A stretch of 64,000 bases of DNA from an uncultured Candidatus Saccharibacteria bacterium (GCA_964357635.1 CAYHLZ010000001.1:44917-108916), one strand, 5' to 3'. Counted from the first letter of the stretch, positions 14,000 through 58,095 are shown. The notes: generated by a model from the letters alone, not told the origin. Numbers and translations are program-made.

Positions 14000-14013
14000 T
14001 TCCAAGCTTAAAA

Positions 14014-29170: not shown

Positions 29171-29397
29171 TCTCCCCTAGTTTATAGATCGTTGCCCGCG
29201 CCACAATAACAAGAAATTATAAGCCTTGTCAATTTGTCTCCGCGACAGGGATCTCTCGGCTTACAGCCGCAGTACACCTTTCGTATTTTCTCATCCTTCA
29301 ACAAATTCAGGACTCGAAAATATATTCAAGGTCTTCTCGCCCTGGACGCAAGCAGGTTCACTGCTTGCTTCGCGTCGCAAAATTGCAAACAATTTTG

Positions 29398-29470
29398 CTC
29401 CGCGACCAGGGCTCGAACCTGGGACATCCTCCTTAACAGGGAGGCGCTCTACCAACTGAGCTATCGCGGA
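29398..29470 (-). tRNA. tRNA-Asn (anticodon GTT)
   Basis: Reverse complement TCCGCGATAGCTCAGTTGGTAGAGCGCCTCCCTGTTAAGGAGGATGTCCCAGGTTCGAGCCCTGGTCGCGGAG; 7-bp acceptor stem, D-loop GG, anticodon loop CUGUUAA, T-loop GGTTCGAGCCC. No encoded CCA. Confidence 0.85.
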
Positions 29471-29736
29471 ATGGATGCTAGAATAATAATGGTAATTTAG
29501 ACATTAATCAATTAAGGATTAAATATGGACCAAAAAAGTTATTATTATGTCACGGGAACCGTTTTCCTTATTATTGCTGTTCTACATTTCTTGAGACTTA
29601 TCTACGGATGGCCAGCCAATATTGGTACTTTTGTGGTGCCGATGTGGTTAAGTTGGGCTGCCCTGGTCTTTGCCGGATATCTCGCATACCAAGGATTAAA
29701 AATAAAAAGATAACCTAAAGATGCTAGAATAGCGCT

Positions 29737-30612: not shown

Positions 30613-30637
30613 TTTCTTCTTCTGTTATACTGGAATT

Positions 30638-31066
30638 ATGAAGATAAACATAAAGGCGACGGGGATAGAGCTCACTCCCGCCATCTCAAGTTATGTGGAG
30701 AAAAAGATTTCAGCGATAGAAAAATTTATTGATAAAGCAACGAACGCCACAGCCCTAGTGGAGGTGGGGAAGAGCACACATCACCACAAGAGTGGAGATG
30801 TCTTCCGTGCCGAAGTGCATATTGTTGGTAACGGTCTTGATGTTTATGCCGCATCCGAAACAGGGGACCTGTATGCTGCGATAGACATGGTCAAGGATGA
30901 GGCAGTGCACAACATGTTACAATTGAAGGGTAAACGAGAGACTCTTGCCCGCAAAGGTGCGAGTGTGATGAAAAACATGATCAAGGGTTTCTCCGAGAAT
31001 ACAGCCAAGGGATTTTCTTGGGGCATGGAGCGATTAAAGTTTAAAAATTTTAAGAAAAGACAATGA
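30638..31066 (+). CDS. hpf: Ribosome hibernation promoting factor (RaiA/HPF family)
   Basis: MKINIKATGIELTPAISSYVEKKI...EVHIVGNGLDVYAASETGDLYAAIDMVKD matches YfiA/HPF fold. Confidence 0.8.
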   Translation: MKINIKATGIELTPAISSYVEKKISAIEKFIDKATNATALVEVGKSTHHHKSGDVFRAEVHIVGNGLDVYAASETGDLYAAIDMVKDEAVHNMLQLKGKRETLARKGASVMKNMIKGFSENTAKGFSWGMERLKFKNFKKRQ

Positions 31067-31193
31067 ATTATTTGAAACAAAAAGCGACACCATGGGTTTC
31101 CATCTCTGTTTTGGCTGGAGGATTGTTTACCGCCGTGGTTTTACTTTGGCTCGTTAGGATTGAAGCCGAGCTTCGGGTCACCATTACTAGTGT

Positions 31194-32522
31194 CTAGTTG
31201 CCTCGTAGGAAATCTTGCCAACCCATCTCTCGCTTACCAGCGGGGGTAACGCGGACTGGGACAAACTTACCATCTTTTATCTCGGCATCTTTGACTACTA
31301 ATCTAATTTCTTTCCCACTCTTGTTCCTGAAGAACATGTAGGCCGTTGGCCAAGTACTATACGCCAAGACTTTTCTCAAATTTTTCTCTGCAGATTCGTT
31401 TAGGTCAAGAAGTCCGTCTTCTTTTTTTATTAGTTTGGTAAAACTTACTTTCTTCTCATCCTGTGGTATCTCTTTCACTTCTCCCTCAATCCATTTTGGA
31501 AGTAGAACCCCGAGTATTCTACCGCCAGCACGAGCAAGCTTTTCTTCTACGACAGCATAGTGGTCTGGCCAAGGAGTTATTGGAACTCGTGCCTGCGCCA
31601 ATATTGGTCCGTGGTCCACTTTCTCATCCATTTTAATTATCGTTACCCCCGCTTCTTCTTCTGCAAGAATTGTTTCTTGAATAGGTGAGGCGCCCCGCAA
31701 CTTTGGCAGAAGTGAGGGGTGGACATTGAGCGCACCATATTTTGGAAGAGAGAGAATCTCTTTCGGCAAGATTTTACCGAATGATGCTACCACATAAACA
31801 TCTGCATCTAACTTTTTTAATTTATCTGGAGATGGAATATCTTTTATAGAACTTATATTAAGCACCGGAGAAAGACCAGCCACTTCAAGCTCCTCCAGAA
31901 CATATTTTGAAAATTGAGAACTACCGAAGAAGACAAACTTAACCACCGCTTTTAGCGGGGTCCCGCCAACGGCGGTGACCGCTTTCTTCGGTGGGACATC
32001 TTGGACATTTTCTGCATTATCAATGAAAAGAACGCCATTTAGATGGTCTATCTCGTGCTGGAAAATCTGTGCCAGAAGTTCTGATGCGCCTCGCTCAATA
32101 AGTTTCCCTGTTTCGTTGTAGGCTCTCAAAGTTACTTTATCAGCTCTTTTTACCTGCCCGTAGAGCCAACGTATTGAGAGACAGCCTTCTTCCAACTTCT
32201 CTTTTTTCCTAGAAGTTTTAATTATTTCTGGGTTGATAAATACCAAATCTTTCGTTGTCTGAGGCAGTTTTGGCACTGGTCCGACATTTAAGTTTCTTTT
32301 TTTTGTTAACATCAAAACATCGCCTCGGACGATAAAGAGTCTCAGACTCTCACCAATCTGTGGCGCAGCGAGCGCCACTCCGTCTTCTTCGGCATGGAGC
32401 GATGTGTGCATCTTCTCTAGAAGGCCTTTAATCTTTTTTCCACCAATTTCTTTTAGGGGCACACTCTTAGCCACCTTTCTCAATACAGGCGCATCTTTTT
32501 GTAATATTTCTGTTTTTGTCAT
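31194..32522 (-). CDS. Fused peptide deformylase / methionyl-tRNA formyltransferase
   Basis: N-terminal Def motifs GVALAAPQIG, EGCLSI, HEIDHLNG. C-terminal Fmt motifs VVASFGKILP, NVHPSLLPKLRG, GVTIIKMDEKVDHGPIL plus Fmt C-terminal domain. Confidence 0.8.
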   Translation of the reverse strand: MTKTEILQKDAPVLRKVAKSVPLKEIGGKKIKGLLEKMHTSLHAEEDGVALAAPQIGESLRLFIVRGDVLMLTKKRNLNVGPVPKLPQTTKDLVFINPEIIKTSRKKEKLEEGCLSIRWLYGQVKRADKVTLRAYNETGKLIERGASELLAQIFQHEIDHLNGVLFIDNAENVQDVPPKKAVTAVGGTPLKAVVKFVFFGSSQFSKYVLEELEVAGLSPVLNISSIKDIPSPDKLKKLDADVYVVASFGKILPKEILSLPKYGALNVHPSLLPKLRGASPIQETILAEEEAGVTIIKMDEKVDHGPILAQARVPITPWPDHYAVVEEKLARAGGRILGVLLPKWIEGEVKEIPQDEKKVSFTKLIKKEDGLLDLNESAEKNLRKVLAYSTWPTAYMFFRNKSGKEIRLVVKDAEIKDGKFVPVRVTPAGKREMGWQDFLRGN

Positions 32523-32776
32523 TTGACCTTAAGACTACCGAAGAAACAGCGTGAGAAATTTGCGCTTTGGGAACACTTCTTTAAAAGATATGCCATATCC
32601 TCAACCGAGAGGTGAGAAGTCTTTATGGCTATCACTTTTATAGGGAATTCCTTCATATCCGCCGCCCTTCTTTCTGCATTTATACGTGCATGGAACTCAT
32701 CAAGCATCTTTAGTCTTGGGTGCTTCAAAAGCTCCTTAAGATCATGACTTTTAAGAGCTTCACTAATAGATTTCAT
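32519..32776 (-). CDS. Hypothetical small protein
   Basis: 4-nt overlap with def-fmt start; no motif. Confidence 0.35.
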   Translation of the reverse strand: MKSISEALKSHDLKELLKHPRLKMLDEFHARINAERRAADMKEFPIKVIAIKTSHLSVEDMAYLLKKCSQSANFSRCFFGSLKVK

Positions 32777-32823
32777 GATTTATGGAACTATAGTATCATA
32801 AGTGCTCTCAATAGATTTTCCAT

Positions 32824-33825
32824 ATGGTAAAGAAACTCGGCATAGATCTTGGCACCACAAATATCCTAGTCTTCGTACCAGGTAAGGGTATTGTTTTGAA
32901 CGAACCATCAGTGGTGGCAGTTTCTGAAGATAACAAAATTTTAGCCATCGGCGCCGAGGCCAAAACAATGATTGGTCGCACTCCAGAAAGTATCATTGCT
33001 TACCGACCGATGAAGGACGGAGTCATCGCCGACTACCGCGTGACGGAGGCGATGCTTCGCTACTACATAGACAAGGCGCTTGGGCGTTGGAATTTTTTCA
33101 AACCAGACGTTTTAATCTCCGTGCCAGCAGGGGTCACTTCTACAGAAAGGCGCGCAGTAGTTGAGGCCGCGATAAAAGCTGGTGCCAAGAACGCCTATGT
33201 CGTTAAGGAACCAATCCTTGCTGCCATCGGTGCAGGTATTCCCATTCAAGAAGCAGCAGGACACATGATTGTGGATATCGGTGGCGGGACTACAGACGTA
33301 GCCGTCATCTCTCTTGGTGGTATTGTGGCCTCTACTTCTGTCAAAGTGGCTGGCAACAAGATGGACACTGCCATCACTGACTATATAAAGAAAAATTTTA
33401 ATTTAATAATTGGAGACAAAACAGCGGAGGATATAAAAATTGCCGTGGGCTCTGCTATTCCACTTGAAGAAGAAGTAGCGATCTCTGTGAAGGGAAGAGA
33501 CTCTCTTCTAGGACTCCCACGCACTATTGAAATTAAGACCAACGAAATAGTAAAAGCAATTTCTAAAGAACTGCGTGAGATGGTGCGAGCGGTCAAAGAA
33601 GTTCTTCAAGAGACCCCACCAGAACTTTCTTCTGACATCATAGACCGAGGCATTATCATGACCGGTGGTTCTTCGCAGTTACGCAATTTTCCTGAACTAA
33701 TGTTTCGTCGTACTGGGGTAAAAGCAGTTTTGGCCAAAGATGCCTACTTCTGCGTTGCCAAGGGTACAGGTGTGGCACTAGAACACTTGAATATGTATAA
33801 AAAGTCTATTATCGCCAAGAGATAA
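32824..33825 (+). CDS. mreB: Rod shape-determining protein MreB
   Basis: Actin-fold phosphate 1/2 LGIDLGTTNILVFV, MIVDIGGGTTDVAVI; adenosine motif GIIMTGGSSQL. Confidence 0.9.
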   Translation: MVKKLGIDLGTTNILVFVPGKGIVLNEPSVVAVSEDNKILAIGAEAKTMIGRTPESIIAYRPMKDGVIADYRVTEAMLRYYIDKALGRWNFFKPDVLISVPAGVTSTERRAVVEAAIKAGAKNAYVVKEPILAAIGAGIPIQEAAGHMIVDIGGGTTDVAVISLGGIVASTSVKVAGNKMDTAITDYIKKNFNLIIGDKTAEDIKIAVGSAIPLEEEVAISVKGRDSLLGLPRTIEIKTNEIVKAISKELREMVRAVKEVLQETPPELSSDIIDRGIIMTGGSSQLRNFPELMFRRTGVKAVLAKDAYFCVAKGTGVALEHLNMYKKSIIAKR

Positions 33826-45019: not shown

Positions 45020-45370
45020 ATGGAAAAAAATAAAGAATTAGGACAGCTCCTAAAGGAGCTGCGCGAGAAAGCTTTTTACGGAATGGGGCTAAGACGGGTG
45101 GCCGATAAAGTTGGTATTGATTATGCTCACATTTTCCGAATTGAAGTTGGTCAATATATACCTTCAGACGAAAACCTTATTAAACTACTCGATGCTTATA
45201 AGGCAAATCATCAGGAGAAAATGACTGCTTTTAAGTTAGCGCGCCTTACTCCTGGTTTCCATAAAGTTATTGAGCAGGCACGAAAGTACTTGGGAAGTGA
45301 TAAAGCTCTTGCTGGAGCTTTTTTCCGTAAAGAAAAAGGAAATAAGAGAAGCGAAAAAGATGAAAAATAA
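45020..45370 (+). CDS. XRE-family HTH transcriptional regulator
   Basis: HTH GMGLRRVADKVGIDYAHIFRIEVGQYIPS; paired with ImmA/IrrE gene 3 nt downstream. Confidence 0.7.
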   Translation: MEKNKELGQLLKELREKAFYGMGLRRVADKVGIDYAHIFRIEVGQYIPSDENLIKLLDAYKANHQEKMTAFKLARLTPGFHKVIEQARKYLGSDKALAGAFFRKEKGNKRSEKDEK

Positions 45371-45372
45371 AT

Positions 45373-46071
45373 ATGAGGCAATCCGAACCAAATGAATACT
45401 TTCCTTTTTTGACCAACGAGATGGTCGAGGAACAGGCACGAACAGACTTTCTGAAGTATCAGAGAGCAACAGGTCGAGAACTAACCTTTCCTATTTATCC
45501 AGATGAAATCCTTCAAGGGTTGTGGGGTGTTACTGTGGAGTATTTAGATGAGGTTTTTTCATCTGACAATGAGGAGGTACTAGCCTGTTTTATTCCTGAG
45601 AAGCAAGTTGTTTATCTAAACAACTCAATGCGGGGATTAGAGGGTCGTGTTTCTTTCAGTCTTGCTCATGAAGCTGGACACGTGTCTCTTCACAGTTTTC
45701 TCGCAAAAGTTGGATATAAGGAGGCGTTGTGTCGTGGGAAACTATCCGTGGGTGACAAGGAGAAAATGATAGAGAGACAAGCTGATAGGTATGCTTCGGC
45801 GCTTCTTATGCCGAAGAATGTTTTGCTCGTTAAGTTAGGACAACTTGAGCATACTCCAACTGGGGTTTTTGACTTAACCATTTACGGTAAAAAGCTCAGT
45901 GATTTTTTTGGAGTTTCTCATCAAGCACTTGAAAGAAGGCTGGCTGATCTTGGTATCAGTTCCATTGGTGGTTACTATGGTGTTAAAACCAAGAAAGTGT
46001 CAGAAAAGTTCTTTGAAGATATGGAAGCAGAGAGGACAACTTGGTCAGCCCACAAAAAAGGTCGAGTATAA
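45373..46071 (+). CDS. ImmA/IrrE-family metallopeptidase (DUF955)
   Basis: HEAGHVSLH zinc motif and downstream ADRYASALLMPKNVL typical of ImmA/IrrE. Confidence 0.75.
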   Translation: MRQSEPNEYFPFLTNEMVEEQARTDFLKYQRATGRELTFPIYPDEILQGLWGVTVEYLDEVFSSDNEEVLACFIPEKQVVYLNNSMRGLEGRVSFSLAHEAGHVSLHSFLAKVGYKEALCRGKLSVGDKEKMIERQADRYASALLMPKNVLLVKLGQLEHTPTGVFDLTIYGKKLSDFFGVSHQALERRLADLGISSIGGYYGVKTKKVSEKFFEDMEAERTTWSAHKKGRV

Positions 46072-46218: not shown

Positions 46219-46683
46219 ATGTCGTTATACATTCTCAGGGCTAAGCCAAATCCTTCCGGTAAGGACAAATATGGTCAGTATGCCCCCAATTCTCAGCAAA
46301 ATGCAGAGTGGATTGATATTCAAAACACTAGCGGTAAGGCTCTGAATATGACCGGTGTAAAAGTCTACGATCACAAGTTTGATGTTTACGGAAGAGATGA
46401 AGGTCGTAGGGAGGTTTACAAGTTTGGTAGTTGGGATATGCCTGTTAATACGGTAGTCCGTATTCATTCGGGTGATCGTGTAGAGATTAGCTCACTACCT
46501 TCCATTGATAGAGATGGTGCTAACTACCACTTTTTCACATGGCAACCTTACGTTTGGAATAACGTATGGGGTGACACTGCAGAAGTGCGTAATTCTACCG
46601 ACCTATTAATCGACAAGGCATCTTACGGACGTAATCCAACTGAGGGCGCAATACTTAAGCGCTACGGAGACCATCTGATCTAA
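46219..46683 (+). CDS. Lamin-tail-domain (LTD)-like protein
   Basis: YILRAKPNPSGKDKYG...AEWIDIQNTSGKALNMTGVKV...VVRIHSG resembles the LTD consensus (NP.G.D...EWIEL.N.s...vdLsGw). Confidence 0.5.
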   Translation: MSLYILRAKPNPSGKDKYGQYAPNSQQNAEWIDIQNTSGKALNMTGVKVYDHKFDVYGRDEGRREVYKFGSWDMPVNTVVRIHSGDRVEISSLPSIDRDGANYHFFTWQPYVWNNVWGDTAEVRNSTDLLIDKASYGRNPTEGAILKRYGDHLI

Positions 46684-46763: not shown

Positions 46764-46839
46764 TGGTGGACCCTACCGGATTCGAACCGGTGACCTCCTC
46801 ATTGCAAATGAGGCGCTCTACCAACTAAGCTAAGGGCCC
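46764..46839 (-). tRNA. tRNA-Ala (anticodon TGC) with encoded CCA
   Basis: Reverse complement GGGCCCTTAGCTTAGTTGGTAGAGCGCCTCATTTGCAATGAGGAGGTCACCGGTTCGAATCCGGTAGGGTCCACCA; G3:U70 pair, canonical D- and T-loops. Confidence 0.85.
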
Positions 46840-46921
46840 TTCGATGGACTCAGGACAAGCCCAATAAGGCAAAAGTATAGTGGACAAAGACCGAAAAATC
46901 AATTAAAAATAATCAATAAAA

Positions 46922-46995
46922 GGGCCTATAGTATAGTAGTAACACGCGTCCATGGCATGGACGAGTCGCGAGTGCGATTCTCGCTAGGTCCACCA
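46922..46995 (+). tRNA. Atypical tRNA-like element (Ala-like acceptor with G3:U70, anticodon-loop GGC, degenerate D- and T-loops; possible pseudo-tRNA)
   Basis: GGGCCTA...TAGGTCCACCA acceptor with G3:U70; anticodon arm CGTCC-ATGGCAT-GGACG; T-arm GCGAG-TGCGATT-CTCGC lacks TTC; D-arm lacks GG. CCA abuts the ATG of the next ORF. Confidence 0.35.
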
Positions 46996-47456
46996 TGTTT
47001 CAAGAAATTTTTTACATCTTCATAATAGCAATGTCTCCTGTGGTGGAGATTAGCGGAGCGATACCTCTTGCTATTCTCACCTTTGACTTCAGTCCGCTTC
47101 AGGCGTACTCGGTGGCGCTTCTTGGAAACCTCATCCCGCCACTCTTTCTCATACCGTTTCTCGGCAGGGTAGACGCCTTTCTTTCTGCTCGCTCTGAACT
47201 CTGGCAAAGGGTCTTTGGTAAGTTTCTCGCAAGGACTAAGGATAACCACATAAAGAAATTTGAAGTTATGAAGGAGCTTGTCCTATTTGTCCTTCTAGTT
47301 ATTCCAACTCCTCTCACTGGCGTCTGGACTGCCTCACTTCTCTCGCACATCTTTGGTATCTCTCTTAGAAAAGCGTATCCTCTCATCGTCTTCGGCCAGC
47401 TTATAGCGGGAATAGTTGTTATTGGAGCAACTCTTGGAATCAGTGCGATTTTTTAG
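46995..47456 (+). CDS. Small polytopic membrane protein (small multidrug-export-like family?)
   Basis: Four hydrophobic helices; loose resemblance to the Sm_multidrug_ex family; immediately upstream of the TasA-like cluster. Confidence 0.4.
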   Translation: MFQEIFYIFIIAMSPVVEISGAIPLAILTFDFSPLQAYSVALLGNLIPPLFLIPFLGRVDAFLSARSELWQRVFGKFLARTKDNHIKKFEVMKELVLFVLLVIPTPLTGVWTASLLSHIFGISLRKAYPLIVFGQLIAGIVVIGATLGISAIF

Positions 47457-47758
47457 TATATGTTACGACACGGTTTTATTTGGTTTACTAGTTGTTGACA
47501 ATTTAATCTCGGGAGTAAACTGCCTTGATGTTCTACCCTTGTTTCTAAACGAGGTGTGGGACATAACGATTAAGCGGGCTTACCGTCGGTCGCTCCGGCA
47601 CCCCTAGACAGAGGTGTGGTCGCGACGACTCAAGTGCTTATTCTTGATTGGTCGCTAGCGCACCTATGTGGTGCTGCAGTCGACCGAGGGCCTAGCCGCA
47701 CTGTGTTGTAAGACACAGAGTGCTATTAAAAGAAATTAGAAATAATTAATAATAAAAT

Positions 47759-48670
47759 ATGCAAAAAGTTCTTAGTATTCAGAGGATCCTCCTCGCTCTT
47801 GGAATCTTGGTATTCCTCGGAGCCGCTATCGTCGGTGCCACAGGCGCCTTCTTCAGCGACACGGAGACCTCAACAGGTAACACGTTTGCCGCAGGTGAAC
47901 TCGATCTCACGATTGACAACTCAAGCTACGGCTTCGATTACAATGACCCAAACAACCGCGAACCAATAGGCAATTGGGGTTTAAACGCGTCTAACTCATG
48001 GACTCTTCGAAATCTCAATGAATGTGGTCCGCTGGATCAGAATGGTGCCACGACTACTGGCCCATGTCTCTTCTTCAACTTCGACGACTTGAAGCCGGGA
48101 GATTACGGTGAGGATACCATCTCGCTCCATGTGCAGAACGACGCCTACGCATGTATGGCGCTTAAACTCACAGCAACACCTGAAAATGATGTAAATGAGG
48201 CAGAAGCTGAGGGTCTTCCTGTAGATACAACGCTCGGAAGTGATGAGGGTGAACTTCAGAATTATCTCAACTTCGCCTTCTGGCGTGACGACGGAGACAA
48301 TGTCTTCGAATGTACCAGTGTCGGAGAGGACCAAACAACATGTCTCGCCACGGAACAAATTCTCTTCCAAGATTCAGCAACGAATCTTAGCCAAGTTCCA
48401 AACACAATTGCGGACCCCGGGAACGGACAGGTGTTGAAAGCCGACGATACGTACTATGTCGGCAAGTCATGGTGCTTCGGCAAAATGAGTCAAAATCCAG
48501 TTCAGAACAACGGCAATGCCGCTCCTACTGAAACTACCACAGGATTCACCTGCGACGGTGTAGGCAATCACAATGATGCCCAGACAGATGGTATTGTTGT
48601 GAACGTTGAATTCTCTGCGGTACAGGCAAGGAACAATGCAGGCTTCCTTTGCTCACCGCTACTACAATAA
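47759..48670 (+). CDS. TasA/CalY (camelysin)-like secreted protein with SipW-cognate signal region, paralogue 1
   Basis: Signal peptide then ATGAFFSDTETSTGNTFAAGELDLTIDN (compare Bacillus CalY ...FAFFSDKEVSNNTFAAGTLDL). Shared paralogue block FDDLKPGDYGEDTISLHVQNDAYACM. C-terminal FSAVQARNN. Confidence 0.65.
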   Translation: MQKVLSIQRILLALGILVFLGAAIVGATGAFFSDTETSTGNTFAAGELDLTIDNSSYGFDYNDPNNREPIGNWGLNASNSWTLRNLNECGPLDQNGATTTGPCLFFNFDDLKPGDYGEDTISLHVQNDAYACMALKLTATPENDVNEAEAEGLPVDTTLGSDEGELQNYLNFAFWRDDGDNVFECTSVGEDQTTCLATEQILFQDSATNLSQVPNTIADPGNGQVLKADDTYYVGKSWCFGKMSQNPVQNNGNAAPTETTTGFTCDGVGNHNDAQTDGIVVNVEFSAVQARNNAGFLCSPLLQ

Positions 48671-48831
48671 GTTTATCTCTAGCCCTTCGACAAGCTCAGG
48701 GTAAACCAACCCTGACTCGCGAATAGCCGAATCCGCCCCGATACAGCATCGGAGCGGAGGGGCTGTTCATGAGAACAGCGAGCACAATCGGATTAACAGC
48801 GAATCAGACATTATTAAAATTAAAAATATTT

Positions 48832-50064
48832 ATGTTAAGCATATTCTCTAACGTGCGCGTACTCTTCGGCTCGCTCATCATAGTGGGCGCCGTGGCGGCT
48901 CTCGCGACGGGACTCACTGGCGCATTTTTCTCCGACACAGAAACGTCAACCAACAACCGCTTCACCGCAGGCGCCATAGACCTGAAGGTTGATAACGAAT
49001 CTTGGTACAACGGAAATGAGTGTGTGCAGAGCGAAGAAGGTTGGGTCTGGCAGGGTCCTAACCCTTACCCAGTTTCCGGTACGCCATGCACGACCTCATT
49101 CCTACCTTCTGACCTTGACGCTGGCTACCTCTTTTTTGATTTCCTAGACCTTAAACCAGATGACGAAGGTGAAGACACCATCTCTCTTCATGTTCAAAAC
49201 GATGCATGGGCATGTATGGACCTGACACTCACATCAAATGACGACAACTCAACATCAGAGCCAGAGAGTTTGGTAGACCAAGCAGAAGATCCGCTTAACT
49301 TCTGGGACGGCGAGCTTGCGCAAAATCTTCAGTTCCTATGGTGGGCTGACGATGGCGACAATGTTCACGAGGTGGGAGAGAAGGTGCTCTCTGACGGTGT
49401 TGAAACTCTCTACAACCTTGCCACCTCTACTGGCGCCTTCTCGATAGTGCTCGCTGATTCTACGCAGAACGCTTGGGGCCTCCCCGCGGGCACCCCACTT
49501 CCTGCAAACGAAACTGTTTATATTGCCAAAGCATGGTGTCTAGGCACTCTTACCGATGATCCTGTACCAGACAATGGCGGCGTAAACCCCGGAGTTGACC
49601 CTGGCGTAAACTGTGATGGCACACTTCTTAATAACCTCACACAAACAGATGGAGTGGAGCTGACACTTGCCTTCAGCGCAGTACAGGCTAGAAACAACGA
49701 ATCTTTCCGCTGTAACCCGCCAGATACCAGAACCGCAACACTTACCGTCAATAAAGCAACCCTAACCTCAACCGCAGGTATTGAAGTTGGCGACTTTACT
49801 CTCCACATTGTTGGTCCGAATGGAGATCAAGTTGTCTCGGATGAAATTCCAACCGCCGGTCTGCCCGCTGGGTCGTACACGACATATGAAGTTGTCACGG
49901 GTGATGTTTTAGGAAAGACGTTTATTACAACGTTCAGTGGTGTTTGTTCAAATGTTGGAAACAGCATGACATCATTACCATTCGCAGTGAATCCTAATGA
50001 CAACGTTACCTGCGTTATTCTAAACGATGAGGTAGGCGATTTCATTCCTCCTACCTTCAACTAG
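48832..50064 (+). CDS. TasA/CalY-like secreted protein, paralogue 2
   Basis: LTGAFFSDTETSTNNRFTAGAIDLKVDN; FLDLKPDDEGEDTISLHVQNDAWACMDL; FSAVQARNN. Start taken at internal ATG giving a typical signal peptide (ORF track starts 48769). Confidence 0.65.
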   Translation: MLSIFSNVRVLFGSLIIVGAVAALATGLTGAFFSDTETSTNNRFTAGAIDLKVDNESWYNGNECVQSEEGWVWQGPNPYPVSGTPCTTSFLPSDLDAGYLFFDFLDLKPDDEGEDTISLHVQNDAWACMDLTLTSNDDNSTSEPESLVDQAEDPLNFWDGELAQNLQFLWWADDGDNVHEVGEKVLSDGVETLYNLATSTGAFSIVLADSTQNAWGLPAGTPLPANETVYIAKAWCLGTLTDDPVPDNGGVNPGVDPGVNCDGTLLNNLTQTDGVELTLAFSAVQARNNESFRCNPPDTRTATLTVNKATLTSTAGIEVGDFTLHIVGPNGDQVVSDEIPTAGLPAGSYTTYEVVTGDVLGKTFITTFSGVCSNVGNSMTSLPFAVNPNDNVTCVILNDEVGDFIPPTFN

Positions 50065-50123
50065 TTTGCCTTCGTGCTTGTGAGCAGTTTGTTCTTCTTG
50101 GTTTCTGATGACCAGCATAAAAT

Positions 50124-51200
50124 ATGAAAACCCTATCCACGAACCTAGCGATGAGATTAGCGATTATCTTCGCGGTCTCTATGGTGGCTGGCACGGCGTT
50201 TTATGCGCGCGGATTGGAGCCGGGCACTACCTTCGCGCCTGGCAACTTTGACTTCAAGATTGATAGCGAAGCAAGTTACAACGGTAACTTTGTGCCCTCC
50301 GGCACCTGGAGTCTCAAGAATTTGGTACCCGGCGTTGACAGGTTCTTTAACTTCGACGACATCAAACCCGGCGACCAAGGGGAGAACACCATCTCACTCC
50401 ACGCCAACAAAAACGCGTGGATGTGTCTTGACTTCATAAATCTTCAAGAAAACGAGAACGGTATAAACGAACCAGAAAGTGAGCTTGATATCACAGGAAG
50501 TGGTGGGGAACTTGCCGACGGCATGGAATTCTTCTCTTGGAATGACGATGGAGACAACATTTTTGAGCTGGGAGAAAAACCTATCTTTGGAACCTCAACA
50601 CAATCTGCTTCAATCGTTCTTGCTTCCACGACCTATGCCGTGGCTGATGCTTTGGGTGGCCAGGCATGTAAGGCAGACAAGACTTGCTACATCGGCATTT
50701 ACTGGTGTGCTGGAAATCTCGAGGTCAACTTAAATACCGCAGAGATTACTTGTGACCATACGACCCTCGGCAACGAGGCGCAGACCGACATCATGACTGT
50801 TGATGTGCGCTTCCGTGCCTATCCGTCGGAAGAGAACCCCGGGCTTCGCTGCGATGGAAAGAAGATTTCTGGTTGTAGTCCCGGCTACTGGAAGAAATCT
50901 AGCCACTTTGACGAATGGACGGCACCCTACACTCCTAACACTCTTTTCTCTTCTGTCTTTGATAACGCCTTCCCCGGCAAGAACCTGAAGCAGGTCTTGA
51001 CGATAACCGGTGGCGGTCTTAATGCCTTAGGCCGACAGACAGTCGCAGCACTTCTCAATGCGGCAAATCCTGAGGTTGGTTATGCCTACAGCGTCGCGGA
51101 GGTAATATCTATGTTTAACGCTGTCTACCCCGGTGGCGACTACGAGACGCTGAAAAACCTCTTTGAAAAACACAACACTAAGTTTTGTCCTCTGAATTAA
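50124..51200 (+). CDS. TasA/CalY-like secreted protein, paralogue 3 (more divergent)
   Basis: Signal peptide; FDDIKPGDQGENTISLHANKNAWMCLDF block shared with paralogues 1-2. N-terminal motif degenerate (TTFAPGNFDFKIDSE). Confidence 0.6.
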   Translation: MKTLSTNLAMRLAIIFAVSMVAGTAFYARGLEPGTTFAPGNFDFKIDSEASYNGNFVPSGTWSLKNLVPGVDRFFNFDDIKPGDQGENTISLHANKNAWMCLDFINLQENENGINEPESELDITGSGGELADGMEFFSWNDDGDNIFELGEKPIFGTSTQSASIVLASTTYAVADALGGQACKADKTCYIGIYWCAGNLEVNLNTAEITCDHTTLGNEAQTDIMTVDVRFRAYPSEENPGLRCDGKKISGCSPGYWKKSSHFDEWTAPYTPNTLFSSVFDNAFPGKNLKQVLTITGGGLNALGRQTVAALLNAANPEVGYAYSVAEVISMFNAVYPGGDYETLKNLFEKHNTKFCPLN

Positions 51201-51202
51201 TT

Positions 51203-51766
51203 ATGAAAACTCTGCGTAAAACATTTTACGGCCTCTTTATCCTTCTCATAGTTGGAGCAGCAGGACTCTTCCTTGCCACTCTGCTTCCCATTCCAGGGAA
51301 CGTTGAGGTAAAAATTGTGAAATCTGGTTCCATGGAGCCGACGATACCTACAGGCTCTCTCGTCTTCGTCAAACCTAAGGCAGAGTACTCGGTGGGCGAT
51401 ATTATCACCTTCGGTCAAGATACAAAATCAGAAATACCGACGACGCATAGAATAACGGAGGTTCAGGTTGGGGAGGGTGGAACAGTTTTTATGACCAAGG
51501 GTGACGCAAACGAAGAAGGTGACCCACAGCCCGTGCCAGCAAGCGAAGTTATCGGTCTAGTTTGGTTCCACGTGCCTTATGCGGGCTACATCATAGATCT
51601 TGCGAGACAGCCGTGGGGCTTCACTTTCCTTATCGGTATTCCCGCAGCACTCATCATTATGGACGAGGCCTTGCGCATCATTTCGGAGGTGAGGGAGATG
51701 CGTCGTCGAAGACGCGAGGGTACGATCGGACTTGTTAACGAAACAAACAACAATGAAATGCGTTAG
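51203..51766 (+). CDS. SipW-like (ER/archaeal-type, S26B) signal peptidase I
   Basis: N-terminal TM, then VKSGSMEPTIPTGSLVFVK (Ser box), PTTHRITEV (His box), TKGDANEEGD; C-terminal TM. Starts 3 nt after paralogue 3. Confidence 0.75.
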   Translation: MKTLRKTFYGLFILLIVGAAGLFLATLLPIPGNVEVKIVKSGSMEPTIPTGSLVFVKPKAEYSVGDIITFGQDTKSEIPTTHRITEVQVGEGGTVFMTKGDANEEGDPQPVPASEVIGLVWFHVPYAGYIIDLARQPWGFTFLIGIPAALIIMDEALRIISEVREMRRRRREGTIGLVNETNNNEMR

Positions 51767-52706
51767 ACAAAAAATTCTTGTCCGTAGGCATAAATTTGAC
51801 GACGTAGTCTTCGTACATGAAGTTGTCTCCTATATACCTGAACCCAAACTTGGAAGAGGGCGCCTTTTTACACCGAGACGCATGATCACGACGGCCTTAG
51901 CTGCCCTTTTTCTAGTCTTTATCGGAGCAAATTATGGCGAAGTGACAGATACGGGCGCCTTCTTCAGCGACACAGAAACTTCGGCGGGTAACAGGTTTGT
52001 CGCCAGTCTTCTTGACTTTGTTGCAAGTGGTGGAGCCTTGGGCAAGGTCACACCTCAAGGTCCGGCTATAGAAATACCTTTCACAGTGACTCCTGAAGCC
52101 GGCTCGGTTGTTACAAAGTATCGCATTACTATTGAAAACATTGTTGGCACCCTGTCCCTCTGTGACGCACTTTCCGTGACGGTTAAAGACGGAACGCCAT
52201 TTGCATATACAGGACCCATCGCAGGTCTTAATGGTACAGCGGAGAGCTCTGTCTCTATGGTGCTTGAAGCTTCTCTACCCTCCGACCCAGGTGTTTCGCC
52301 CGAAGACGAGTGTACCTTTGATATAGTTGCGCGTGGTTGGAACCAGCTCGTACCAGAGAACACCGGTTATCTTGATGAAGAGCGCGCACAGGTGGTAATA
52401 AACGACCCGCCAGCCGAGACGACCACTGAACCAAGTCCTTCGCCGGACTCAGGACTTCCGGCTCCTGAACTCCTTCAGGAAACTACAGTTGTTATTGAAC
52501 AACCAAGTGATGAAATCTTGCCGGAAGAAATCCCTGTAGAGAAGGAAGTCCCACAGGAGGAGGCTATAACAGAGGGATCAGTAGAGGAGAACTCTAGTAC
52601 GGAAGAGACCACGCCTGAACCTCCGCCTAGTAACGAAATTTTGCCAGAGCCAGAGGTAGTGTCTGAACCGGTCTTAGAAATGCCCCCAGAGCCAGTTGTG
52701 GAATAA
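51732..52706 (+). CDS. SipW-cognate-type secreted protein, paralogue 4, with C-terminal Pro/Glu-rich repeats
   Basis: TGAFFSDTETSAGNRFVASLLDF after a hydrophobic segment; true start probably the internal Met near 51882 (MITTALAALFLVFIG). C-terminal ~110 aa are PE/EV/EP-rich low complexity. Confidence 0.55.
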   Translation: MLTKQTTMKCVRQKILVRRHKFDDVVFVHEVVSYIPEPKLGRGRLFTPRRMITTALAALFLVFIGANYGEVTDTGAFFSDTETSAGNRFVASLLDFVASGGALGKVTPQGPAIEIPFTVTPEAGSVVTKYRITIENIVGTLSLCDALSVTVKDGTPFAYTGPIAGLNGTAESSVSMVLEASLPSDPGVSPEDECTFDIVARGWNQLVPENTGYLDEERAQVVINDPPAETTTEPSPSPDSGLPAPELLQETTVVIEQPSDEILPEEIPVEKEVPQEEAITEGSVEENSSTEETTPEPPPSNEILPEPEVVSEPVLEMPPEPVVE

Positions 52707-53606: not shown

Positions 53607-54518
53607 ATGACAGAGAAAATTCTTGCGGGTGCGCTATTTTTGGTTTCCGGTTTTCTTGTTTGGCACAACACAGCTTTTTTAAGATTGCCCAAGCCTTGCG
53701 AGGAACCCATTACTTACAACATTGGCTCGTTTGACAATAGATTTAACATAACAGAGAAAGATTTTCTCTCCGCACTGTCTCAAGCAGAAGCGATATGGGA
53801 GAAACCTTTTGGCAAAGAACTTTTTGCCTTTGCTCAAGTGGATGCGACTCTTCCGGTAAATCTTATTTACGATTATCGCCAAGAAACAACAAGCACTTTG
53901 TCTAACTTAGAGGGTGTCTTGGAGCAAAGTGAAGATACTTATAAGGTACTTGAAAGTAAGTACAGCGTACTGAAGTCAGAATATGAAAAAGCAAAGAGTA
54001 TTTATGAAGCCCGTGTTAGGACGTTTAACGAAGCCAATAGAGCCTACGAGAAACAGGTGGATGCTTGGAATAACGGACCAAGAACTTCTAAACAACAGTT
54101 TAACGAATTGGCAAAGGCAAAAGGGGCCCTAGAAGAAGAAACAAGAACAATAAGAAACATGGAAAATTTGTTAAACGGTCGAGTTAAGGAGATTAACGAG
54201 CTTGTCGGCCGTCTCAATTATGCTGCCGAAGCTCTTAACCTCGGAGTAAAGACATATAACACTATTGGTGGTTCTAGAGGAGAGTCATTTACTGGCGGTG
54301 TCTATTACAGCTCCGAGGGTACACAAGGTATAGATATTTATGAATTTAGTAGTCATGAAAAATTGGTAAGAATATTGGCGCATGAACTGGGGCACGCCTT
54401 GGGACTTGAGCACAATGATGACCCTGAAGCCATCATGTTTCATTTAAACAAGGGCGATGCCGAGGCAGTCTCTCCGGCCGACCTTGCAAGTCTTAAAATT
54501 CTTTGTGGGGCAGAATAG
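53607..54518 (+). CDS. Membrane-anchored metzincin-type zinc metalloprotease with coiled-coil linker
   Basis: N-terminal TM; central heptad-rich region; C-terminal HELGHALGLEHNDDPEAIMF (HExxHxxGxxH + Met-turn). Confidence 0.6.
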   Translation: MTEKILAGALFLVSGFLVWHNTAFLRLPKPCEEPITYNIGSFDNRFNITEKDFLSALSQAEAIWEKPFGKELFAFAQVDATLPVNLIYDYRQETTSTLSNLEGVLEQSEDTYKVLESKYSVLKSEYEKAKSIYEARVRTFNEANRAYEKQVDAWNNGPRTSKQQFNELAKAKGALEEETRTIRNMENLLNGRVKEINELVGRLNYAAEALNLGVKTYNTIGGSRGESFTGGVYYSSEGTQGIDIYEFSSHEKLVRILAHELGHALGLEHNDDPEAIMFHLNKGDAEAVSPADLASLKILCGAE

Positions 54519-55498: not shown

Positions 55499-56503
55499 TT
55501 AGTTTGAAGTTGTTGCGCTGAAGACTGGAGTAACGGTTCTATTACCGCTTCCATCTCTAGATTCTGCTGCGAAGTAGTAGAGAGTTGAAGTTGCAAGACC
55601 ACTTACTGTAATTAGGTGGTTTTGTTTTAGAGTGGAATTCTCTACAAAGCTTGTTGTGCTTGCGTTCACATCTAGACCCGAGGAAGTTCCATAGTAGACC
55701 CTTGAGGTCGCATTTTCGTTAGTGTGCCAACCAATGTTTGCGGTTGATGTAGACATTAGAAGTGTCACAGACGAGATTACTGGTGCGGAACTATCTGTAG
55801 AAACTGGTTTGGTGGTAAACGAACTCTCTGTTGAGGTGCTTGTATTACCGTTCCCGTCTTTTGAACGGACTACGAAGTAGTAGGTGGTACTGGCGCTAAG
55901 ACCCTCTATAACTAGTTTGTGTTCCTTAACTTTCTCACTTCTTGTTGTAGAAGCTGTTGAAGAGCTGTTTACATTCACGTTAGCAGAGTTTGACCAGAAG
56001 ACAGTACTATCTGACTTCTCATTAGTATTCCAAGTAATTGTCGCTTTTATCGTATTTGGTTTGGCCAAGAGGTTACTAATAACTGGTGCGGTAACATCAG
56101 TAGACGGAGTGGTGGAAGAAGTGGTGCCGTTGAATTTCTTAGCTATACCGAAGGGCACGAAACAATTCCAGAAGAACTCTCGCTCTTCTGCGCCCCAGTT
56201 ATTGACGAACCCAGGAGCGAAGAGGCGTCCAAAGGCTGTGCGACATAGTTCCTTTCTTTCACTATTTTTTCTGCCCTTTTCTTTTTTCTCACTCTTTCTG
56301 TCCTCGTCTCTATCCTCATCCCCGTCGTCATCTTCGTCGCGATCGTTATCTCGATCGTCGTGTTTTTCTACTCGTTCTGACCGATTGTTCTGTCTATTCT
56401 TTTTCTTACCGTTATCATTATCGGCATAAGAGAATGCTGGCATAAGGCCGAGCATCAAGATAAGCGAGAAAACGGTCATTTTCTTATAAAGCGTGTTTGT
56501 CAT
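55499..56503 (-). CDS. Secreted protein with charged low-complexity N-region and two FN3-like domains
   Basis: Signal peptide; D/E/R/K-rich stretch; two ~90-aa Ser/Thr-rich beta-sandwich-like repeats (…TTYYFVVRSKDGNGN… / …TLYYFAAESRDGSGN…). Confidence 0.45.
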   Translation of the reverse strand: MTNTLYKKMTVFSLILMLGLMPAFSYADNDNGKKKNRQNNRSERVEKHDDRDNDRDEDDDGDEDRDEDRKSEKKEKGRKNSERKELCRTAFGRLFAPGFVNNWGAEEREFFWNCFVPFGIAKKFNGTTSSTTPSTDVTAPVISNLLAKPNTIKATITWNTNEKSDSTVFWSNSANVNVNSSSTASTTRSEKVKEHKLVIEGLSASTTYYFVVRSKDGNGNTSTSTESSFTTKPVSTDSSAPVISSVTLLMSTSTANIGWHTNENATSRVYYGTSSGLDVNASTTSFVENSTLKQNHLITVSGLATSTLYYFAAESRDGSGNRTVTPVFSATTSN

Positions 56504-56660: not shown

Positions 56661-57194
56661 ATGTCTATCAGTGATGATAAAAAGCGATTTAGCGATATTT
56701 ACAACAAAGAGTCAGACGCTCTGTTTCGCTTTTGCTTGCTTAGGGTATCAGACAGGGAAAAGGCAATTGATATAACCCAAGAAGCCTTCACTCGTCTCTG
56801 GAGTTCTATCTCTTCAGGTAAGCCAGTTGAGAACCCAAGGGCACTGGTCTTTGTAATAGCGCGTAATCTTATCATTGACTGGTATCGGAGGACAAAATCA
56901 GTATCTCTTGAAGGACTCAATGGTGGCGATGAGGAAAGAGAGTTTGACCCACCAGACGAGAAAGCTACTCTTGAGATAGAAACAAGTGTTGATGCTAAGC
57001 GTGCTTTAGAAATGATTGAATCTCTTGAATCGCAGTACAGAGAAGTAATCTATTTCCGGTTTGTGGAGGATCTCCAGCCTAGAGAGATTGCCGAGATTTT
57101 AGAAATCAACGTAAACACCGTTTCGGTACGCCTAACTCGGGGACTTGAAGCGCTTCGCAAACTCATGGGAATCTCAAGAAATAAATATGAATGA
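56661..57194 (+). CDS. ECF-family RNA polymerase sigma factor
   Basis: Region 2 AIDITQEAFTRLW...IARNLIIDWYRR; region 4 REVIYFRFVEDLQPREIAEILEINVNTVSVRLTRGLEALRK. Confidence 0.8.
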   Translation: MSISDDKKRFSDIYNKESDALFRFCLLRVSDREKAIDITQEAFTRLWSSISSGKPVENPRALVFVIARNLIIDWYRRTKSVSLEGLNGGDEEREFDPPDEKATLEIETSVDAKRALEMIESLESQYREVIYFRFVEDLQPREIAEILEINVNTVSVRLTRGLEALRKLMGISRNKYE

Positions 57195-58095
57195 AGAAAA
57201 TTTTAAAAAAGGAATAAAGGAACTCAAAAATATCCGCATGACGAGTGCGGAGAAGAGGGCTGTGCTTGAAAAAGTCTTCTCTTCACCCGTTGAGTCTCCT
57301 TATATGGAACGTATCCCAGTGTTTGCCGTTGTAACCTCTCATCATGCCAGAATTATTCTTACTGGCTGTTTGGTGGCGGCACTTTCTTTTAGTGGTGTGG
57401 TATATGGCTCTGACAGGTCTCTACCTGGTGACCTTTTGTACCCAGTTAAGACCAACTTCGTCGAGCCAGTACTTGACGCGGTAAACCATTCTCCAGAGAG
57501 AAAAATAGTCTGGGAAGAGGAAAAGATTGATAGGCGCATAGTGGAGGCAGAAAAACTGATAGAAAAGGACGAACTTGATGATGAAAAGCTTGAGAAACTT
57601 GAGAAAAGTATAGAAAAAAGTTCTTTTGCCTTTACCAAAGCAGCAGATAGCGTCGCTTCTTCTACAGGCACCTCCACCTTGTCTAGAAAAAAGAAGGCAG
57701 AGGATTTAAAGCGAGAATTCCGCGGAAGAATAAGTGACCGCAGAGGGGCCTTTGACATAAAAGATGATGAAGAAAAAGTTGAATCTAGTGATGAGGCTTC
57801 TTTTGGAGTAAGGGTTAGAGTAGAAGACGCCGAGAAGATACTTAACGAATTAGACGATGACCGAAATTCTAAAAAAGAAAGGATAAACAGGCTTAAAAAC
57901 GCTGCCATAAAAGTGATAGATGAGGACGATGATAGTGACGAGGACGAAGATAATTCAGACGATGATTTCGTGGATGGAGTAAAGTTACGGGGTGATGGAA
58001 GCGTGGATGACGATAACAGCTCCTCAACTGACGACGACGATGACAACGAGCTGGAGGTAGAAATAGAAGTAGAAACCGAGGACATTAGTATATAA
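57187..58095 (+). CDS. Putative anti-sigma factor: single-pass membrane protein with acidic C-terminus
   Basis: 8-nt overlap with ECF sigma gene; one TM (ARIILTGCLVAALSFSGVVYG); coiled-coil and D/E-rich tail. Confidence 0.45.
   Translation: MNEENFKKGIKELKNIRMTSAEKRAVLEKVFSSPVESPYMERIPVFAVVTSHHARIILTGCLVAALSFSGVVYGSDRSLPGDLLYPVKTNFVEPVLDAVNHSPERKIVWEEEKIDRRIVEAEKLIEKDELDDEKLEKLEKSIEKSSFAFTKAADSVASSTGTSTLSRKKKAEDLKREFRGRISDRRGAFDIKDDEEKVESSDEASFGVRVRVEDAEKILNELDDDRNSKKERINRLKNAAIKVIDEDDDSDEDEDNSDDDFVDGVKLRGDGSVDDDNSSSTDDDDDNELEVEIEVETEDISI

Follow-up and report, generated by a model that had tools for sequence, protein, structure and literature searches.

The stretch of DNA analysed here (the window: 64,000 nucleotides, or 64 kb, from an uncultured, ultra-small Candidatus Saccharibacteria bacterium of groundwater) contains five ORFs on its + strand from which sequence comparison and structural modelling predict a cassette of three TasA-like subunits, a SipW-type signal peptidase and a TapA-like starter protein. 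The first protein, P1 (47759-48670, 303 aa), consists of a TasA-like core domain only, P2 (48832-50064, 410 aa) joins such a core to a C-terminal domain, and P3 (50124-51200, 358 aa) has the core with a variant N-terminus. They are followed by an S26B signal peptidase (51203-51766, 187 aa) and the TapA-like P4 (51753-52706, 317 aa), and preceded by an intergenic 5' leader of 302 nt (47457-47758, also + strand) that is predicted to be strongly structured. Public gene calls start P2 at 48769. For P4 we prefer the ATG at 51753, which is also the public gene call, over the TTG at 51732 chosen by an earlier interpretation made without database searches (hereafter the sequence-only reading), and with this start the P4 gene overlaps that of the peptidase by 14 nt. 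The same reading had set a spacing of 3 nt between P3 and the peptidase and had begun the interval at 46995; the peptidase actually starts 2 nt past the P3 stop, and position 46995 falls in an unrelated small multidrug-export gene (PF06695), no homologue of which was found near the cassette in the other genomes. The cassette had also been placed beside a type IV pilus locus and DsbA/DsbD genes. Those genes (T2SSE/T2SSF at 11670-13999, a DsbD-like fusion at 21375-23156 and a DsbA-like gene at 5551-6252) lie 24-41 kb off, with TGT, UvrABC, Ddl, UppS, MreB and other housekeeping genes between, and for this reason we rejected them as context for the cassette.

How are the four proteins related to one another and to TasA? 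They had been taken for four paralogues on one strand, and they do share a strand and P1-P3 are paralogous (P2 and P3 are 46% and 41% identical to P1), but the body of P4 is different and predicted to be Ig-like, and its 25% identity to P1 is owed mostly to an N-terminal motif. The block (F/L)(D/L)D(L/I)KP(G/D)D.GE(D/N)TISLH..N.A(Y/W).C was found in P1-P3 as described, FSAVQARNN in P1 and P2, and the paired cysteines proved to be eight Cys in each of P1, P2 and P3 and two in mature P4. TIGR04088 recovered the anticipated SipW-cognate signal in P1 and P2 (25.7 and 22.4 bits, cut-off 19), with no match to P3 and none reported for P4 despite a motif evident by eye. PF12389, a profile of 196 positions, matched the N-terminus only, at 27.6 bits in P1 (positions 15-50) and 23.0 bits in P2 (positions 14-51). 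The TasA equivalog profile NF046066 gave 14.3 bits against a cut-off of 450, a profile of the P1 family found nothing at E<=10 among all PDB sequences, hhalign of that profile with mature TasA aligned only 21 C-terminal columns (E=0.09), and BLASTP of P1 with TasA aligned the N-terminal 25 residues only; homology of the mature domain to TasA is therefore argued from the comparison of folds alone. As foreseen, that comparison led to TasA: the AF2 model of P1 (pLDDT 81) has a predicted jelly-roll/beta-sandwich fold resembling TasA, its best structural matches, of moderate strength, were the TasA fibre (8aur), AbpA (7ueg) and Saci_0406 (7pnb), and the TasA fibre was both the top Foldseek match (E=1.5e-4, probability 1.0) and the only one below 1e-3. 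The core of P1 is larger than TasA and has its eight Cys where TasA has none. A protein identical to P1 carries the name 'TasA family protein' at NCBI. Separately, TLP-1b, a pond-water environmental fibril, appeared as a weak Foldseek match (E=0.015). Because it is encoded first and consists of the core only, P1 is a candidate for the major fibre subunit.

The other two subunits differ from P1 at their ends. The C-terminal 110 aa of P2 (49732-50064) form a prealbumin-like (SpaA_2-like) domain with a weak, full-length match to PF19403 that is below cut-off (E=0.019), and homologous domains in related loci carry PF19403/PF24514. P3 had no HMM match, and its C-terminal domain of 113 aa (50859-51200), which is present in nine loci, belongs to no Pfam family when checked in P3 and six orthologues. 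Its N-terminal segment is shorter and variant (AFYARGLEPGTTFAPG); a protein with ..R-G-x-E-P-G-x-T-F-A-T recurs in related loci, one to a locus, and its gene invariably sits immediately before that of the peptidase. We had considered that P3 might be without a donor strand and membrane-anchored, but after inspection of its orthologues we softened this to a variant strand, because a cleavage site remains plausible and there is still a segment, if a shorter one, of the form aromatic-Arg-Gly-x-Glu-Pro.

The motif (A/T)GAFFSDTETS(T/A)(G/N)N(T/R)F, situated after a hydrophobic segment, occurs exactly three times in a six-frame translation of the 64-kb window, namely and as claimed in P1 (TGAFFSDTETSTGNTFAAGELDL, 47843-47908), P2 (48916-48984) and P4 (GAFFSDTETS, 51951-52019) only, and P3 has a degenerate version, GTAFYARGLEPGTTFAPGNFDF. 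In P1 it would comprise a SipW cleavage box (T-G-A↓F, the arrow marking the predicted cut) and then the donor strand. By BLASTP, mature TasA, the sequence of which we confirmed against 8aur_A, pairs its residues 2-25 with residues 32-56 of P1 (40% identity), and this segment of TasA is its experimentally defined donor strand and linker (PMC9674648). Residues 28-45 of P1 have a pLDDT below 50 and are disordered in the monomer model; the motif region falls below 50 in the models of both P1 and P4, the cores of which are confident. Furthermore, a conserved T-x-(A/S)↓(F/Y) box obeys the -3/-1 rule in P1, P2, P4 and TasA. We conclude that the motif combines a predicted cleavage box with a putative donor strand at the N-terminus of the mature protein. 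Its earlier description as a SipW-cognate signal region agrees with the TIGR04088 match but needs amending in that the bulk would reside in the mature protein, as a donor strand. The neighbouring peptidase would be expected to cleave P1-P4 at the conserved box.

That peptidase had been assigned to the S26B/SipW type. It exceeds the cut-off of the archaeal/ER-type profile TIGR02228 (107.5 bits against 51.85) and stays below those of the bacterial-type TIGR02227 (23.9 against 47) and of PF10502 (20.3 against 22.9), in agreement with the assignment; the SipW Bacillus equivalog, NF046067, is its best-scoring family, but the 111.5 bits obtained are below the cut-off of 190, and we therefore regard it as a SipW-like protein and not as a SipW orthologue. 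The SGSMEP, THRI and GDAN boxes reported for it are all present, and SGSMEP, TTHRI and KGDANE are conserved in the six family members inspected (the window protein and five relatives). The second box has His, not Lys, and family knowledge suggests that the Ser, His and GDxN boxes are catalytic. The protein has membrane segments at both its N- and C-terminus and is the sole signal-peptidase relative found in the 64-kb window.

P4 runs from a 44-aa basic cytoplasmic N-region through a membrane segment, the GAFFSDTETS motif and a predicted Ig-like beta-sandwich to an acidic tail, the Pro/Glu character of which had been recognised (99 aa, about 52410-52706). Its mature N-terminus, TGAFFSDTETSAGNRF, copies the donor strand of P1, TGAFFSDTETSTGNTF, and T.SYF.D.E.S..N...A..LDF is kept among 37 aligned relatives of the P4 type. 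The body is Ig-like in a predicted model that was built on an alignment of 11 sequences because database searches found few relatives (4 and 12). Comparison of the P4 and P1 families by hhalign gave a probability of 92.8%, a signal that comes from the N-terminal motif, and we did not accept it as evidence for a TasA-like body. Sequence and model together indicate that P4 is TapA-like and no paralogue of the mature TasA-like domain, the N-terminal motif being all they have in common, and it is the predicted Ig-like sandwich with the acidic Pro/Glu tail that would give it the architecture of TapA. TapA has a long pre-sequence, a strand-copying N-terminus (its AFHDI corresponds to AFNDI in TasA), a complete Ig fold and an acidic disordered tail, and in B. 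subtilis the tapA and sipW genes overlap (Roske et al., 2023); P4 shares the pre-sequence, the strand-copying N-terminus and the overlap with the peptidase gene, and is predicted to resemble TapA in its Ig fold and acidic tail as well.

The family extends well past this genome. Searches returned 2170 database relatives at E<=1e-3, which argues against chance. At least 360 species genomes encode relatives, the best 80 being almost all labelled Patescibacteria. Most loci, and nearly every one with enough flank, have the order paralogues, peptidase, P4-type gene. None of the three refuting outcomes named by the sequence-only reading (no resemblance to TasA past the signal region, a peptidase of another type, absence from related genomes) was observed. 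Of the 81 distinct loci analysed, 66 keep the linkage to the peptidase, and contig ends cut off most of the remaining 15. All 66 have one to five TasA-like genes upstream on the same strand, and 40 have a P4-type domain directly after the peptidase or fused to it: in 32 loci it has its own gene downstream, and in eight it is joined with the peptidase in one ORF, such fusions occurring in at least eight species.

The leader is predicted to contain a hairpin of ~120 nt, a second small hairpin and three GGTCGC boxes, and RNA from 47500-47760 has an MFE of -104.9 kcal/mol (z=-7.3 against 200 dinucleotide shuffles). It has no match in Rfam even at E<=10, and Rfam identified only tRNAs in nine related loci. 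In two related loci, L034 and L129, the first TasA-like gene is preceded by leader-like sequence. A scan of metagenomes with a 17-base leader pattern returned 76 stretches, one of them a true relative (L129, on another Hainich groundwater contig); the others are probable chance matches, as they have neither leader similarity nor a TasA-like motif. Leaders of related loci are enriched in DnaA-box-like motifs, but the window is not, with 16 matches against 14.4 expected and none of them near the operon. Many related loci have a conserved leader motif without an Rfam entry.

What, then, does the cassette make? What we established are the family signatures, the resemblance in fold, the type of the peptidase, the gene order kept between loci and the correspondence of the motif to the donor strand of TasA. 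We think it probable that the cassette encodes an extracellular fibre system of the TasA/TapA/SipW type, for which the following course of polymerisation, cleavage and subunit roles is proposed. P1, P2, P3 and P4 would be exported by Sec via their N-terminal membrane segment, and the co-encoded S26B peptidase would cut at T-x-(A/S)↓(F/Y) to leave FFSDTETS..N.F as the new N-terminus. This segment, unstructured in the monomer, would serve as a donor beta-strand for the following subunit, slotting into its jelly-roll sandwich in the way known from TasA and archaeal bundling pili, and produce a non-covalent, bead-like fibre. The TasA fibres of Bacillus had been described as amyloid-like, but they are donor-strand-exchange polymers and not amyloid (PMC9674648). 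P1 would provide the bulk of the fibre, and P2, with the same core, might use its prealbumin-like domain for adhesion or decoration. P4 would act as the TapA analogue, able to start a fibre but not to accept a strand, because it combines the same donor strand with an Ig-like domain that is complete, and P3, because its N-terminal segment is altered and contains proline, could be a specialised end or adaptor subunit. A role in attaching to host cells or surfaces is plausible.

A bolder version of this proposal is a Patescibacteria-specific, ordered multi-subunit donor-strand fibre under the control of an RNA leader, with P4 as initiator, P1 as shaft, P2 bearing the adhesin and P3 as terminator, adaptor or anchor; we regard this extension as tentative and, as a whole, unlikely. 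Fused P4 proteins would then be single polypeptides with their own signal peptidase, freed by self-processing, the leader would be a previously undescribed structured RNA that controls or stabilises expression, and ultra-small episymbionts would have in the fibre a second organelle, besides type IV pili, that links them to hosts or surfaces. About as improbable, in our judgement, is that the proteins do not polymerise at all and are SipW-processed monomers, secreted or on the surface, that serve as adhesins or as envelope or matrix components, the motif being a recognition and cleavage element only. Such monomers would suit the confinement of detectable sequence similarity with TasA to the N-terminal motif, the merely moderate fold matches, the adhesin-type prealbumin-like domain of P2 and the long, variable C-terminal extensions of many relatives.

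The remaining explanations we consider very improbable. Camelysin-type (MEROPS M73) metalloproteases for nutrient scavenging or host attack are suggested by the name of the matched Pfam family, Peptidase_M73, and by one relative annotated 'M73 family metallopeptidase'. However, TasA, the member of the family that has been characterised, has a structural role in fibres (PMC9674648), the PF12389 match spans the signal/donor-strand region only (profile positions 14-51 of 196), neither HExxH nor a reversed zinc motif is present in any of the proteins, and their His number only 2-4 apiece. SpaA-like domains (PF19403/PF24514) in P2-type relatives would fit a covalent Gram-positive pilus of the sortase type, but an LPxTG-like sorting signal is absent from P1-P4 and LPxTG from all proteins, and no sortase appears in the precomputed Pfam labels of the genes around the cassette, either on the window's contig or in locus L004, or in Pfam scans of the window. 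Similarly, the JGI product name of several relatives, 'predicted ribosomally synthesized peptide with SipW-like signal peptide', suggests RiPP precursors, yet no modification enzymes lie within the cassette, and the proteins, 300-400 aa long and with domains modelled confidently, are no short precursor peptides.

Patescibacteria form a large part of bacterial diversity and of the communities in groundwater, and their way of life is believed to be attachment to other cells. To our knowledge, a part in attachment has so far been demonstrated by experiment for only one kind of their surface filaments, type IV pili, and we know of almost no RNA regulation in the group. The fibre system that we favour points to a second, chaperone-free filament system, based on donor-strand exchange and with genes in hundreds of species, and with its five defined proteins it is a concrete candidate among the surface filaments in cryo-ET of Patescibacteria cells. 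In the conserved leader motif, the loci also hold a candidate for a new cis-acting RNA. To work on TasA they offer a natural experiment in the form of several subunit paralogues with differing N-terminal strands and a TapA-like partner beyond Firmicutes, and the peptidase-substrate fusions bear on the cooperation of SipW and TapA. The sequence-only reading had called the system unrecognised, which is true of the cassette as such, but the NCBI name already refers to TasA, and the 2022 TasA census placed Patescibacteria among the phyla with PF12389 homologues (Wang et al., 2022); assignment to the TasA family and to a SipW-type peptidase is within reach of standard annotation.

Comparison with known systems brings out what sets the cassette apart. 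The B. subtilis operon has the order tapA-sipW-tasA with one TasA subunit, in a Firmicute, whereas here, in a Patescibacterium, three diverged subunit paralogues precede the peptidase and then the putative initiator, which in at least eight related species forms one protein with the peptidase; the mature domain is also larger than that of TasA, contains eight Cys as well as an invariant DDGDN loop, and goes unrecognised by TasA profiles past the N-terminus. Bacillus cereus, with sipW-tasA/calY, is presumably similar in that several TasA-like paralogues share one SipW, and we take the CalY N-terminus to be the closest to the motif AFFSD.E.S..N.F.AG.LDL, computed support for which consists of the TIGR04088 and PF12389 matches only. 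Unlike the present cassette, B. cereus has no TapA-like Ig protein, although one camelysin was suggested to fill that role (Roske et al., 2023), and at the sequence level the mature domains cannot be aligned. The archaeal loci of AbpA/AbpB (Pyrobaculum calidifontis) and of the Saci_0406 threads (Sulfolobus acidocaldarius) are without a dedicated peptidase, unlike here, and their subunits are smaller (180 aa), N-glycosylated and without the AFFSD motif. Finally, chaperone-usher pili (Pap/Fim) use the donor-strand principle with several subunit paralogues per operon, the order of which is set by differing N-terminal extensions and which include specialised initiator and terminator subunits, and it is from analogy with these pili that we propose the roles of P3 and P4.

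Five co-directional, closely packed genes occupy positions 47759-52706 of the window in our ORF reading, all on the + strand: P1 (47759-48670, 303 aa), P2 (48832-50064, 410 aa) and P3 (50124-51200, 358 aa), which encode TasA-like proteins, a SipW-type signal peptidase (51203-51766, 187 aa), and P4, a TapA-like protein whose start is best placed at the ATG of 51753 (317 aa), giving a 14-nt overlap with the peptidase gene. The sequence-only reading had begun this cassette at 46995. That start is not upheld: ORF 46995-47456 encodes a small multidrug-export protein (PF06695), and because no homolog was seen close to the cassette in other genomes we place it outside the system. The motif-bearing secreted genes and internal block of that reading were, however, re-found in the window. 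Across the entire window, (A/T)GAFFSDTETS..N.F is found three times, only in P1, P2 and P4, with a degenerate form in P3. P1-P3 have a common core (41-46% identity) in which the LKPGD.GEDTISLH block is accompanied by an invariant DDGDN loop and by four cysteines invariant across the family, out of eight cysteines in each of the three proteins. Proteins identical to those of the cassette are found on Hainich groundwater contigs from the 0.1-µm fraction.

What kind of proteins are P1-P3? The proposed SipW-cognate signal region holds, as P1 (25.7 bits) and P2 (22.4 bits) both score above the TIGR04088 cut-off. Pfam Peptidase_M73 is also passed, covering only profile positions 15-50 (P1) and 14-51 (P2) of 196, and the TasA equivalog model fails (14 bits, cut-off 450). 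Judged by sequence, the mature domains form a separate family. The AlphaFold model of P1 (59-sequence alignment; pLDDT 81, pTM 0.75) had just one Foldseek match in the PDB under E=1e-3, namely 8aur_A, the TasA fibre solved by cryo-EM, and its top three structural matches (8aur, AbpA 7ueg and Saci_0406 7pnb), with moderate scores, are all chaperone-free donor-strand filament subunits. A likeness to TasA/camelysin past the signal region is supported by fold but not by sequence, since neither profile comparison with PDB sequences nor hhalign against TasA supported a TasA link of the mature domain. Because the structural scores are moderate and sequence methods give no confirmation, we place P1-P3 by predicted fold in the TasA-like superfamily as a distinct family.

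BLASTP aligned P1 residues 32-56 to mature TasA residues 2-25 at 40% identity, using a TasA sequence checked against 8aur_A. Cryo-EM and a deletion mutant place the TasA donor strand at residues 28-38, followed by a linker (PMC9674648). Since the aligned TasA residues are donor strand and linker, the "SipW-cognate" motif would represent a predicted cleavage box and then a putative donor strand. P1, P2 and P4 have the predicted box T-x-A↓F, and most P4 relatives have T-x-S↓Y; the corresponding box in TasA is T-W-A↓A. Purified camelysin has the N-terminus FFSDKE, which would suit the same cut. In both monomer models (P1 and P4) low confidence is confined to the motif region, as would be expected for a strand that is ordered in the polymer only.

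We consider it less likely that P1-P4 act instead as monomers that do not polymerise. That they are proteases, as an M73 match might suggest, is very unlikely, given that the zinc motif is absent from all four proteins and the match is limited to the strand region. Sortase pili or RiPP precursors are likewise very unlikely: LPxTG is absent from P1-P4 and no sortase was detected among the labelled genes around the cassette (window contig and locus L004), while modification enzymes for RiPPs are absent from the cassette, and protein size and fold do not suit such precursors. We prefer the TasA-like reading.

The archaeal/ER (S26B) type assigned to the peptidase from sequence proved correct: it has the SGSMEP, THRI and GDAN boxes, passes TIGR02228 (107.5, cut-off 51.85) and fails the bacterial LepB-type model. 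Its best score is to the Bacillus SipW equivalog, yet this lies under that model's cut-off.

The cassette also recurs in related genomes, as had been anticipated. When each species was represented by a single genome, at least 360 genomes encoded a relative; nearly all of the best 80 carry a Patescibacteria label, chiefly of Paceibacteria/Parcubacteria lineages, with a few Microgenomates. With clustering at 50% identity, an exhaustive profile search returned 896 clusters at E<=1e-30, rising to 1968 at E<=1e-10. In all 66 loci with a peptidase, one to five TasA-like genes lie upstream of it on the same strand, and a separate P4-type gene follows it in 32. The genes flanking the cassette vary from genome to genome, and therefore the cassette is a conserved unit. 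In eight of the 66 loci P4 is fused in frame with the peptidase (L010, 7039-8820; L013, 14067-15770; L014, 11970-14165; L041, 11457-12845; L047, 10750-12318; also L032, L045 and L065), and 15 further peptidase ORFs exceed 300 aa and bear an unassigned extension. The fusions run from the peptidase through a second membrane segment, a basic cytoplasmic linker with a conserved (M/F)DDV(F/V) motif, a third membrane segment and a cleavage box to the Ig domain, a predicted topology that appears sensible for a peptidase joined to its presumed substrate.

Where it can be recognised, the gene that immediately precedes the peptidase has FFSDTETS..N swapped for a shorter aromatic-x-R-G-x-E-P-G-x-T-F-A-T. 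In each of the 10 loci with the strict pattern (looser variants give more) this P3 class is present as one copy, and its place is always just before the peptidase. Because N-terminal extensions set subunit order in chaperone-usher systems, we propose by analogy that P3 may be an end or adaptor subunit. The C-terminal 113 aa of P3 (50859-51200) constitute a domain starting CSPGYWKKSSHFDEW, which is C-terminal on a TasA-like paralog in nine loci and has no match in Pfam or NCBIfam.

The 302-nt leader of P1 (47457-47758) is predicted to fold into very strong structure (MFE -104.9 kcal/mol; z=-7.3 vs shuffles); it has three GGTCGC boxes and no Rfam match, and could be a regulatory or mRNA-stabilising 5' UTR. 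For the 300 nt that precede the first TasA-like gene, the median z across 75 related loci was about -3.6, with 45 loci at <=-2.5, whereas random windows from the same loci had a median of -0.85 (12% at <=-2.5). Seventeen leaders align as a motif of ~120 nt, a long A/U-flanked hairpin (GAGCYG...CRGCUCUUUUU) and then a GGUCGR box, and a covariance model (R1) built from them and searched in 1.09 Mb found six additional full-length copies (E<=1.4e-5), each directly upstream of a TasA-like gene, and nothing comparable away from such gene starts. The structural alignment has 24 rows, four of them antisense copies of the same hairpins; 93% of the hairpin is paired and 14 of 20 pairs have compensatory changes in this alignment, which was fitted to the structure. 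The motif occurs in L005, L007, L009, L018, L020-L022, L024, L026, L027, L032, L036, L040, L042, L045 (5017-5148), L047, L053, L064, L065, L070, L071, L074 and L078. It is absent from the window, whose leader is a different variant that only L034 and L129 share. Because it is terminator-like yet specific to this operon, the R1 hairpin may be an attenuator or a new cis-regulatory RNA. Separately, DnaA-box-like sequences (TTWTNCACA, TTGTGCACA) are ~16-fold enriched in related leaders (1.47 vs 0.09 per kb elsewhere), occurring in 33 of 77, mostly at a distance of 250-375 nt before the first TasA-like gene (e.g., in L015, L052 and L064); these may be transcription factor sites. The window has no such enrichment (16 observed vs 14.4 expected).

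The suggestion that the cassette adjoins a type IV pilus locus and DsbA/DsbD machinery is not borne out. The pilus genes T2SSE/T2SSF lie at 11670-13999, a DsbA-like gene at 5551-6252 and a DsbD-like fusion at 21375-23156, all 24-41 kb from the cassette and separated from it by housekeeping genes. They provide no neighborhood signal, although they show the genome to be capable of oxidising exported cysteines, consistent with the conserved Cys. Just upstream of the cassette, 46219-46683 encodes a stand-alone Lamin Tail Domain (LTD) protein (PF00932, 34.0 bits, under the 34.3 cut-off); an LTD-like stretch (NEFLPNPD...GEWVELYN) is visible by eye after the P4 domain of the L014 fusion (11970-14165), and the P4 relative P0131 carries PF00932, which makes LTD a possible recurrent partner. 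The tRNA-Ala genes TGC (-) and GGC (+) lie divergently at 46764-46995, just ahead of the cassette region; the second ends on the first base of the ORF starting at 46995. An Xre-type HTH gene is paired with a Peptidase_M78 (ImmA/IrrE-like) gene at 45020-46071. Downstream are an M10 metallopeptidase of matrixin-like type that begins with a hydrophobic segment (53607-54518), an FN3/purple-acid-phosphatase-N repeat protein whose N-terminal region is highly charged (55499-56503, -) and an ECF-type sigma factor with a DUF5667 protein after it (56661-58095); these three may serve other envelope or secreted functions, and were not seen beside the cassette in L004, the one other locus with gene labels. 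Farther away, a 442-aa ORF (31194-32522, -) with peptide deformylase (PF01327) and methionyl-tRNA formyltransferase (PF00551, PF02911) domains looks like a Def-Fmt fusion. The cumulative GC skew has its minimum at ~28000-33000, with the predominant gene strand changing from - to + near 29.7 kb; this region could be a replication origin, and no DnaA box cluster was seen there.

Is the system "unrecognised", as was claimed? The family assignment is already public: the NCBI entry for P1 reads "MAG: TasA family protein [Patescibacteria group bacterium]", a name from PGAP, and Patescibacteria are listed among phyla with PF12389 homologs (Wang et al. 2022). In the literature searched, we found no paper pairing SipW with any name of the phylum, and as far as can be told the cassette of five genes, its TapA-like partner (including the fusion with the peptidase), the enlarged Cys-rich core and the variant-strand paralog (P3) are undescribed.

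P4 had been counted as a fourth paralog, which we reject, as its profile link to P1 stems from the motif and its body differs, being modelled (pLDDT 82-95) as an Ig-like sandwich. Its structural matches form a flat list of CLIPPER, PapD-like and macroglobulin domains and chaperone-usher pilins, and its C-terminal tail of 99 aa is 25% Glu and 21% Pro. At the level of predicted architecture only, P4 appears to match all five features described for TapA: a long pre-sequence, a mature N-terminus near-identical to the strand of TasA, a full Ig fold unable to accept a strand, an acidic, disordered C-terminus, and a gene arrangement in which the tapA stop overlaps the sipW start (Roske et al. 2023).
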